Virus record (IMG/VR): IMGVR_UViG_2706794687_000006
Reading direction: 5' to 3' (one strand)
DNA from: a virus
Taxonomy: Duplodnaviria > Heunggongvirae > Uroviricota > Caudoviricetes
Length of the DNA stretch: 4,213 nt
Part shown: positions 2,116 through 4,213 of the stretch, piece after piece
Position numbering within the stretch: the first letter of the stretch is position 1
Layout: the number at the start of each line of letters is the position of its first letter
The notes under the pieces: model-generated
What the model saw: only the letters and a program-made list of their open reading frames with translations
Database searches by the model: none
Told to the model about the DNA's origin: nothing
Program-made: the position numbers and the translations under genes

Positions 2116-3946
2116 CGGGTGCCGGAACCGCAGTACTGGGGGCGCTGGCGCTCCCGGTCAAATCTGCCATTGCCCTTGAATCAAAAATGGCGGATGTCCG
2201 GAAAGTGGTGGATGGTCTGGATACGCCGGAAGCGTTTAAGGCAATGACGGAGCAGGTGCGCGANNNNNNNNNNNNNNNNNNNNNNNNNNNNNNNNNNNNN
2301 NNNNNNNNNNNNNNNNNNNNNNNNNNNNNNNNNNNNNNNNNNNNNNNNNNNNNNNNNNNNNNNNNNNNNNNNNNNNNNNNNNNNNNNNNNNNNNNNNNNN
2401 NNNNNNNNNNNNNNNNNNNNNNNNNNNNNNNNNNNNNNNNNNNNNNNNNNNNNNNNNNNNNNNNNNNNNNNNNNNNNNNNNNNNNNNNNNNNNNNNNNNN
2501 NNNNNNNNNNNTACCGGTCCTGCAAGTGCGAAAAAGATTTCTGATGTTGTGACCCGTATTGGCCCTTTAGGCAGTGTTGCGGGTGTGGCCTCCGGAGAGA
2601 TTGCCGCAATGGGGGCAACCATTGCCGGAATGGGGGTGGAGTCAGAAATTGCTGCGACGGGGATAAAGAATTTTATGTTGTCGCTGACAGCGAGGGATTC
2701 TGCCACCAAATCGCAGAAAAAAGTGCTCCGCTCGTTGCGCATTAGCCCGAAAAAACTGGCGGCGGATATGCAGAAAGACGCCCGCGGGGCCATGCTGCAC
2801 GTACTGGATTCTCTGGCAAAAGTGCCGAAAGAAAAACAGGCTGCTGTGCTGAAAGCGCTGTTCGGGAAGGAATCCCTGGGGGCCATTGCGCCGCTGCTCA
2901 CGAATCTGGATTTGTTGCGAACCAACTTTAATCGTGTGGCGGATGCGCAGCAGTATGGCGGCTCAATGCAGAAAGAATATGCCGCCCGTGCCGCGACGAC
3001 AGAAAATCAGTTGTTGCTGCTGCAGAACCAGATCAATGCGATTTCTTCCACGCTGGGGGAAACCTTCCTGCCTTCACTCAATGAAGGCATAAAAGAGATG
3101 AAGCCTTTTCTGGAAGAAGTGCGCACGTTTGTCAGAGAAAATCCTGAGGTCGTAAAAACCATCGCGAAAACTGGTGCGGCATTACTGACGATGGGCGTGG
3201 CGATTGGCACATTGACACGCATAACAAAAATCATGGGTAGCGTGATGAATATGACGCCGGCAAAGGGATTAATTGCGCTTCTCGTCGGTGGTGCATATCT
3301 CATAATTGATAACTGGGAAACGGTCGGTCCGGTTGTGAAAAAAGTCTGGCAGGAGGTTGATCAGGTTGTCAGAGCAATGGGGGGATGGGAACAGGCAGTA
3401 AAAACAATAGCAACGGTTTCTGCCCTGTATATTGGTGTGAAGGCGGTGGCAAGTATTCGTGCGGCAACAGTCGCCCAGAATCAATGGACAACGGCGGCAG
3501 GAAAAACAGGGCTGAAATTAAAGGGCCTCGGAAAGATCAGTCTGATTGGTGGATTGCTTGAACTGGGCATGATGGCGCAGGAGTTTGAAAAAGCACATCC
3601 CTGGCTTGTTAAAAATTTTGTGGCTGATGCACTGAACAGTGGATTTGGTCTGAATGATAAGTTCGACGAGTGGGGCAAACAGTTCCATGATTTTGTCTAT
3701 GACATGACCGGATGGCAGATGCCACGTGGTGATGGGTATTTATCTCCCGATAAACGCTACACCCCGAATGTATCACTGGAAAGGAATCAGCTGTTAAGCC
3801 TTGCATCTTCACCGGCAACCCGCAGCGAACTTAAGGTGACGTTTGACAACGCGCCGCCTGGAATGCGCGTTATCGATTTGCCGAAAACAGGCGATCCCTT
3901 TATGAAAATCACCCATGATGTTGGGTATTCTCCATTTAAAAGGTGA
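2116..3946 (+). CDS. Phage tail tape measure protein (TMP); 5' end not visible, interrupted by the N-run 2264-2511, stop TGA at 3944-3946
   Basis: Segment 1 (2118-2263, codon starts 0 mod 3) translates to GAGTAVLGALALPVKSAIALESKMADVRKVVDGLDTPEAFKAMTEQVR, which resembles the conserved TMP core motif as I recall it. Segment 2 (2513-3946, codon starts 2 mod 3) is open from the gap edge: TGPASAKKISDVVTRIGPLGSV...LFGKESLGAIAPLL..., followed by several long hydrophobic stretches typical of TMPs. The ATG at 2187 and GTG at 2549 used by the ORF track are internal codons, not true starts. Confidence 0.8.
2264..2511. other. Run of 248 N inside the tape measure gene
   Basis: Directly visible. TMP coding frame shifts from 0 mod 3 before to 2 mod 3 after, so the stated length is not frame-consistent with the flanks. 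Confidence 0.95.
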
Positions 3947-4013
3947 GTTCTTTTTTTGTGGTGAAAGATGAGGCAAAATTATCGCGTAACATGCTAACAA
4001 TGGAGTTTGTTTT

Positions 4014-4145
4014 GTGATAAAGCCATTTTTAATGACGGTTGCAATATTAACCTCTTGCTGTGCTCAGGCGAAAATACTAACAAATGAGGAGATTGTTTCA
4101 CGATTTATTAGTAACGTTAAAACGGTGATGCTGCCAACTTACTGA
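4014..4145 (+). CDS. Candidate small exported protein or lipoprotein (43 aa) of unknown function; hypothetical
   Basis: GTG start at 4014 preceded by GGAG (4002-4005) with 8-nt spacing; stop TGA at 4143-4145. Translation: MIKPFLMTVAILTSCCAQAKILTNEEIVSRFISNVKTVMLPTY. It has a Lys-containing n-region, a hydrophobic core, a lipobox-like L-T-S-C (Cys15) and an alternative A-Q-A signal peptidase I motif. Short ORFs can be chance, and the region is AT-rich. Confidence 0.35.
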   Translation: MIKPFLMTVAILTSCCAQAKILTNEEIVSRFISNVKTVMLPTY

Positions 4146-4213
4146 TTTAGTGTATGATGGTGTTTTTGAGGTGCTCCAGTGGCTTCTGTTTCTATCAGCT
4201 GTCCCTCCTGTTC

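Follow-up and report, generated by a model that had tools for sequence, protein, structure and literature searches.

Gene content of the prophage segment

The window, that is, the whole 4,213-nt stretch of DNA analysed here, covers part of a Mu-like tail module and is bracketed by two insertion sequences, IS600 at its left end and IS1 at its right. Positions 1–113 are the 3′-end of the IS600 copy (IS3 family), with the orfB stop codon at 58–60, and matches to annotated IS600 copies extend to positions 111–121. The tail sheath gene (123–1619) lies directly 3′ of an IS; in intact relatives, a DUF2635 gene and head genes occupy this left end instead. Two runs of N (2065–2115, 51 N; 2264–2511, 248 N) do not have their true lengths. 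In the matching Shigella sonnei contig AGRD01000060.1 (L005), they correspond to 457 nt (7654–8110) and 240 nt (8259–8498), and the sequence behind them comprises the 3′-end of the tail assembly chaperone gene and, within the tape measure gene, parts of its 5′ third. In all segments tested (1–300, 1500–2000, 2116–2263 and 2512–4213), the window is identical to this contig; positions 1–2064 taken whole are not an exact substring of it.

The 3′ part of the tape measure gene occupies 2549–3946 on the plus strand, as identified from the ORF list and from the annotation in E. coli relatives. The true start of the gene lies upstream, within and before the masked N-runs, and in the S. sonnei contig the gene has a match to PF10145. 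Its stop codon (3944–3946) coincides with the left edge of a low-GC insert. A preliminary description of this DNA had placed a small ORF in an AT-rich stretch, and the composition bears this out, with a GC content of 34–35% at 3940–4119 vs 47–52% upstream. The insert begins with a leader (3947–4013) that is the same in intact E. coli copies and carries the Shine-Dalgarno sequence GGAG at 4002–4005. The GGAG is well spaced, 8 nt ahead of a GTG start codon, and the 43-codon ORF that follows (4014–4145, plus strand) is present in the sequence as described, with the product MIKPFLMTVAILTSCCAQAKILTNEEIVSRFISNVKTVMLPTY. Three segments make up this ORF and its surroundings. Positions 4014–4123, which hold codons 1–36 and the first two bases of codon 37, are the native 5′ fragment of a gene for a PHROG 5586 protein; the last of these positions, 4115–4123, are the left copy of a 9-bp target-site duplication, CGTTAAAAC; and positions 4124–4213 are the left end of an IS1A element in plus orientation.

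The N-terminus of the product has a lysine at position 3 followed by a hydrophobic core, with a best 8-residue Kyte-Doolittle mean of 2.76. According to signal-peptide rules, codons 1–19 (4014–4070) would encode a signal peptide. The signal peptidase I motif AQA reported earlier is found at residues 17–19 (4062–4070), and the −3/−1 rule is satisfied for cleavage after A19. A lipobox-like LTSC (codons 12–15, 4047–4058) ends in Cys15 and fits both the PROSITE-type lipobox pattern and the pattern [LVI][ASTVI][GAS]C in rule-based matching. A consensus scan of the window detected no sigma-70 promoter ahead of the ORF. The single promoter-like site in this region (CTGCCA, a 16-nt spacer and TATGAT; 4131–4158, plus strand) is inside the IS1 end and belongs to IS1, not to the ORF. 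IS1 has a promoter located partly within its left inverted repeat.

The IS1 junction

The left inverted repeat of IS1 (IRL; 23 bp, 4124–4146, plus strand) has the sequence GGTGATGCTGCCAACTTACTGAT. A 94-base query comprising positions 4120–4213 is 100% identical to annotated IS1A. It found matches in 4963 of 5426 complete E. coli genomes, at a median of 10 places per genome, and the places matched at 100% are annotated as “IS1-like element IS1A family transposase.” The window extends over no more than the first 90 bp of the element. The junction consists of AGTAACGTTAAAAC joined directly to GGTGATGCTGCC, and this exact combination of gene and IS1 had 0 matches in species-representative genomes. 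To the left of it, the native fragment is 100% identical to the start of WP_000594909.1, encoded by the prophage of E. coli FDAARGOS_944 that carries the closest intact copy of the gene. When the upstream region was searched alone, the match to the native gene in related E. coli prophages ended at 4123, and the alignment with intact copies likewise diverges exactly at 4123. Codons 1–37 of the ORF are thus native, barring the third base of codon 37; this base, codons 38–43 (VMLPTY, 4125–4142) and the TGA stop codon (4143–4145) are supplied by IS1. Because these last six codons and the stop lie inside the IS1 inverted repeat, the mature peptide of 24–29 residues that had been proposed is a product of the insertion, and the ORF is not the complete small gene for which it had been taken.

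The whole insertion can be read in AGRD01000060.1, in which IS1 spans 10111–10878 (768 bp, with IRL starting at 10111 and the right inverted repeat, IRR, ending at 10878). The site corresponding to window position 4124 has the exact IRL sequence, and a PF03400 (DDE_Tnp_IS1) gene lies within the element at 10360–10863. The sequence CGTTAAAAC flanks IS1 on both sides, at 10102–10110 and 10879–10887. In BLAST comparisons, each half of the interrupted gene aligns with the intact gene of E. coli FDAARGOS_944 at 100% identity, and the two segments overlap by the nine duplicated bases (query 216–224). Joining the two halves restores a 160-aa protein with zero changes. Another S. sonnei assembly (L006) and one IMG/VR locus (L025) carry the identical insertion.

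An exact-protein look-up located the 43-aa product on two NCBI contigs, with IS1 immediately downstream on both; its GenBank entry is a hypothetical protein of S. sonnei 3226-85. “Partial” proteins of S. sonnei either end in …NVKT or start with ESLP followed by VKTSAD, the latter start being the right end of IS1 read into the duplicated target. Simple IS1 insertions with a 9-bp target duplication are abundant in Shigella genomes, and the present one shares with them the exact IS1A end, the 768-bp length, the 23-bp inverted repeats, the 9-bp direct duplication, the PF03400 transposase and an AT-rich target, with no notable difference. At the insertion site, assembly L006 has two tandem IS1 copies (4881–6424) separated by 8 bp: the IRLs are at 4881 and 5657, and the IRRs end at 5648 and 6424. 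This tandem may be real or an effect of assembly.

The host prophage and its decay

The prophage that carries the insertion is a decayed, IS-riddled prophage of S. sonnei with a Mu-like tail. Copies of IS4-family elements, IS600 and additional IS1 surround the insertion, and the prophage has no head module. IS expansion and pseudogene formation are characteristic of the S. sonnei genome.

Insertion sequences are also found in related prophages. In Shigella flexneri SFBU1023 (L018, from about 4563), the 160-aa gene is intact, and a different IS1 in the opposite orientation breaks the downstream gene for the DNA-circularization protein (N) about 30 codons in. The same prophage region has been inactivated independently in S. 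sonnei and S. flexneri. In the prophage of E. coli FDAARGOS_944, an ISEc60 element (IS4-like; L001, 1296–2486) splits the tail sheath gene.

The intact gene and its family

Genes of 160 codons that start at the same GTG, with the same ribosome-binding site, are present in E. coli FDAARGOS_944, AST215 and STEC309, where they are annotated as “hypothetical protein.” The intact protein matches PHROG 5586 (function unknown) from end to end (E = 9.7e-89). It had zero matches in Pfam, NCBIfam and PADLOC at E ≤ 10, and a PDB sequence search also returned zero matches. A search of the literature library for the protein accessions, the PHROG identifier, the locus tag and phage vB_EcoM-720R4 returned no paper, and a broader search on morons and Mu-like phages returned nothing relevant.

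Conservation of the reading frame had been suggested as a check on the 43-codon ORF, and it went against that frame. All 38 of the uninterrupted copies, which were drawn from E. coli and S. flexneri chromosomes, IMG/VR contigs and phage vB_EcoM-720R4, continue to 160–162 codons and retain the full frame (483 or 489 nt). These copies fall into two subfamilies with approximately 50% protein identity; WP_000594909.1 belongs to the first and WP_000738066.1 to the second. ETEC H10407 (ETEC_RS23655) is among the strains with an intact copy. Between the subfamilies dN/dS is 0.17, with dS saturated; inside each of them it is 0.5–0.65, with few substitutions and no excess of variable sites at third positions. 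Across nine homologs that share 36–99% identity, FKMPRGQFFVDV is an invariant motif. A full-library profile search returned 19 representatives, including proteins of approximately 150 aa at 24–41% identity.

The family is present in 112 of the 5426 complete E. coli genomes, as well as in prophages of Shigella, Salmonella and Yersinia and, more distantly, in phage-plasmids. The multi-repeat proteins P0018, P0021 and P0025 each matched through 8–12 short stretches and were discarded as noise; P0018, the one of the three that was read, has cysteine-containing repeats. In a 100-aa protein from a Logan assembly (P0007), an unrelated N-terminus of 40 residues is fused to residues ~101–160 of the family, which probably represents another disruption or rearrangement at a different point in the gene.

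Genomic slot

Members of both subfamilies are flanked by the tape measure gene on one side and the Mu N-like DNA-circularization gene on the other, and are encoded on the same strand. This arrangement was seen in 27 of 27 IMG/VR loci, in phage 720R4 and in the copies examined from E. coli and Yersinia. The gene is dispensable even so, being absent from sibling prophages with a tape measure 3′-end that is 97–99% identical; there the two tail genes are 15 bp apart. The distance from the tape measure stop to the N start is 15 bp in E300082 and ETEC1732 and approximately 600 bp in FDAARGOS_944 and others. The insert has a GC content of 35–38%, vs 50–58% in its flanks. It is followed in FDAARGOS_944 by a terminator-like hairpin of 10 pairs and then TTTTTAT (L001, 6903–6925; pattern match), and in phage 720R4 by a hairpin of different sequence and a T-run at the equivalent position. 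In S. sonnei the terminator is located beyond IS1, outside the window.

In Mu-like tail modules, the ancestral gene behaves like accessory cargo of the moron type, located where the tape measure and N genes meet. The moron, in the sense used here, was reportedly defined in the comparison of HK97 and HK022 by Hendrix and colleagues. With the lambdoid morons bor and lom of phage lambda, the gene shares its position as an extra gene separating two genes that adjoin each other in related phages, a deviant low GC content and an intrinsic terminator of its own, here a terminator-like hairpin; like Bor and Lom, its product would be exported, as predicted here. It differs from them in that the consensus scan did not detect a promoter belonging to it, with no sigma-70 consensus site in L001 6100–7100. 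This result weakens the strict label of moron, and expression may occur only from the late tail operon. The gene may have a weak or non-sigma-70 promoter. The suggestion of a prophage moron with an export signal thus holds for the ancestral 160-aa gene, in respect of both export signal and cargo behaviour, and fails for a gene of 43 aa.

Relatives with approximately 25% identity (L015, 740–1270; L016, 2919–3413) are found next to genes for IncFII RepA and ParA-like proteins. Their neighbours also include toxin-antitoxin genes (MazE/PemK, Gp49/HTH) and genes for CI-like repressors. These settings are apparently phage-plasmids, and they constitute a second, unrelated cargo slot for the PHROG 5586 family.

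Export signal and predicted fold

The c-region of the predicted signal peptide ends in A-x-A in the full-length relatives examined, with a lysine directly after it in all but one. By rule-based comparison, AQA-K of the window aligns with SFA-K, ALA-K, VSA-K, VFA-K, ALA-K and AMA-K of the relatives. The lipobox cysteine is part of a cysteine pair (SCC). Outside the E. coli/Shigella subfamily, this pair occurs in the Yersinia copy alone; the lipobox cysteine is missing in the subfamily with ~50% identity and in the relatives with 24–41% identity, which have AxA-K instead. The lipobox proposed at Cys15 is accordingly retained as a pattern match, but its reading as a lipidation site is weakened because the cysteine is limited to a subfamily and the AxA-K site occurs in all full-length members examined. 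Since A-x-A sites extend across the relatives and the SCC pair is confined, Sec export with cleavage by signal peptidase I is the predicted trait of the family. Lipidation of Cys15 is possible in the E. coli/Shigella subfamily, and elsewhere in the family the protein would be soluble and periplasmic, cleaved after AxA.

Two of the sequences deviate at the N-terminus. The distant sequence P0019 is without an N-terminal signal and looks truncated. The homolog of Yersinia enterocolitica (L017, 5970–6010) is annotated from MMLISCC…, without a charged n-region, and ATG AAA AAA CCT (MKKPIYLCL*) is found upstream in another frame, which suggests a 1-nt indel or a sequencing error in the signal-peptide region.

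In the mature part of the protein, C57 and C150 are invariant family-wide. Their invariance fits a periplasmic disulfide, and a C57–C150 bond linking the first strand to the last is probable. An AlphaFold model built from 12 sequences, including distant relatives, has a pLDDT of 84.7 and a pTM of 0.78, and contains a helix at 24–41 followed by eight beta-strands. A model from 8 close sequences (pLDDT 40.7) was discarded. The predicted fold would be a small eight-stranded up-and-down beta-barrel, without a match to a specific family; the viral fold library BFVD returned nothing at E ≤ 0.001. Periplasmic or lipoprotein lysozyme inhibitors (PliC/MliC and PhiA) were among the known systems compared. 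MliC/PliC became a lead through the fold class and an “SASGA” string, with no Pfam match, and homology to them was rejected: hhalign comparison of the family alignment with E. coli MliC, whose sequence was checked against PDB 2F09, gave a probability of 0.05%. Any likeness of the model to MliC/PliC would be one of fold class only and not of family membership.

Origin of the 43-codon reading frame

Almost certainly, the reported ORF is a 5′ stub, left behind when an insertion inactivated a longer gene. A 768-bp IS1 inserted into codons 35–37 of a 160-codon prophage gene and duplicated a 9-bp target. Translation from the native GTG would now proceed through 37 codons and six more inside the IS1 inverted repeat to the TGA stop; the remaining 123 codons and the gene terminator are intact on the far side of IS1. 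None of the analyses made gave an observation contrary to truncation by IS1. The within-subfamily dN/dS values, obtained from few substitutions, are counted against this explanation as a whole.

It is very improbable that the 43 codons are themselves a genuine moron for a small exported or lipidated peptide of the exclusion-lipoprotein or entericidin kind. The ORF, the spacing of its ribosome-binding site, the n- and h-regions, the lipobox pattern and AQA are all present, and the product has a GenBank entry of its own (hypothetical protein, S. sonnei 3226-85), but such a gene would have to take its last six codons and its stop from an IS1 inverted repeat. Its exact product was found only on the two contigs with IS1 right downstream, the uninterrupted copies uniformly encode 160–162 aa, and Pfam gave zero matches at E ≤ 10. 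Slighter still is the chance that the frame opened at random in an AT-rich spacer where there was never a gene, intact or otherwise. The window does contain 46 ORFs of at least 25 aa, most of them spurious; absence from Pfam and NCBIfam and the lack of a third-position excess at variable sites within the subfamilies would fit such an origin. A random frame would nevertheless hardly stay open for 160–162 codons in 38 copies with a dN/dS of 0.17 between subfamilies, keep FKMPRGQFFVDV invariant across the nine homologs, preserve a signal peptide and both cysteines in relatives of 24–41% identity, or yield a confident AlphaFold model.

A third reading accepts the intact 160-aa gene and takes its product for part of the Mu-like tail or for a factor in tail assembly, acting for example with the tape measure protein or N, in which case the IS1 insertion merely adds to the tail defects of the prophage. 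The constant slot and strand in every tail-module copy examined, across two subfamilies only ~50% identical, speak for this, as does the failure of the consensus scan to detect an own promoter. A tail function is nonetheless improbable: the predicted cleavable signal peptide would export the protein from the cytoplasm, where tails assemble; sibling prophages join their tail genes across 15 bp without it; the GC content of the gene is ~15 points under that of its flanks; a terminator follows it; and no tail genes are near the distant homologs, which are located in maintenance regions of plasmid type.

Under truncation by IS1, the stub would consist of a signal peptide and approximately 18–22 native residues of a beta-barrel protein of ~140 residues. 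Such a stub cannot fold as a barrel and is therefore most likely a non-functional pseudogene fragment, although residual translation of it is possible.

Possible role of the ancestral protein

The ancestral protein would have been exported, with a signal peptide, one helix and an eight-stranded up-and-down beta-barrel. As a tentative suggestion, it may have been a cell-envelope binding or inhibitor protein that benefited the lysogen, for example in superinfection exclusion or in protection against peptidoglycan hydrolases; what probability remains is shared among other periplasmic roles, with a small part for a tail-related one.

The comparison with T5 Llp, phi80 Cor and entericidins in the preliminary description was made on size and architecture. 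It stated that there was no sequence similarity to these proteins, which agrees with the lack of a match to them in any library used. The analogies themselves fall, because they rested on small size, and the small size is an artefact of truncation by IS1. What the intact protein has in common with T5 Llp and phi80/N15 Cor is that all are phage-encoded and envelope-targeted, here by prediction, together with an LTSC in the E. coli/Shigella subfamily. It differs in having no detected sequence similarity to them, in a mature protein of ~141–145 rather than ~25–30 residues, in the absence of the lipobox cysteine from most of PHROG 5586, and in its location between the tape measure and N genes. The llp and cor genes, by comparison, adjoin a receptor-binding or fibre gene.

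Implications

The disruption described here is one more IS1-disrupted prophage gene of S. sonnei. It carries a caution for annotation: short ORFs abutting the ends of insertion sequences can mimic small secreted peptides, and this one has been deposited as a 43-aa protein. The residual value of the finding lies in PHROG 5586, a fairly common, predicted exported beta-barrel cargo in a fixed slot of Mu-like tail modules. That PHROG 5586 constitutes an undescribed class of exported beta-barrel protein protecting the lysogen at its envelope is a more speculative and, on balance, unlikely proposition. If it is true, these proteins might block the receptor or the tail-associated peptidoglycan hydrolase of an incoming phage, which would place them in functional analogy with Llp and Cor or with Spackle of phage T4 and the PliC/MliC inhibitors, and S. 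sonnei would have lost an envelope-protection function via IS1. With a confident structural model at hand, intact PHROG 5586 alleles are reasonable candidates for lysogenic-conversion or exclusion screens.
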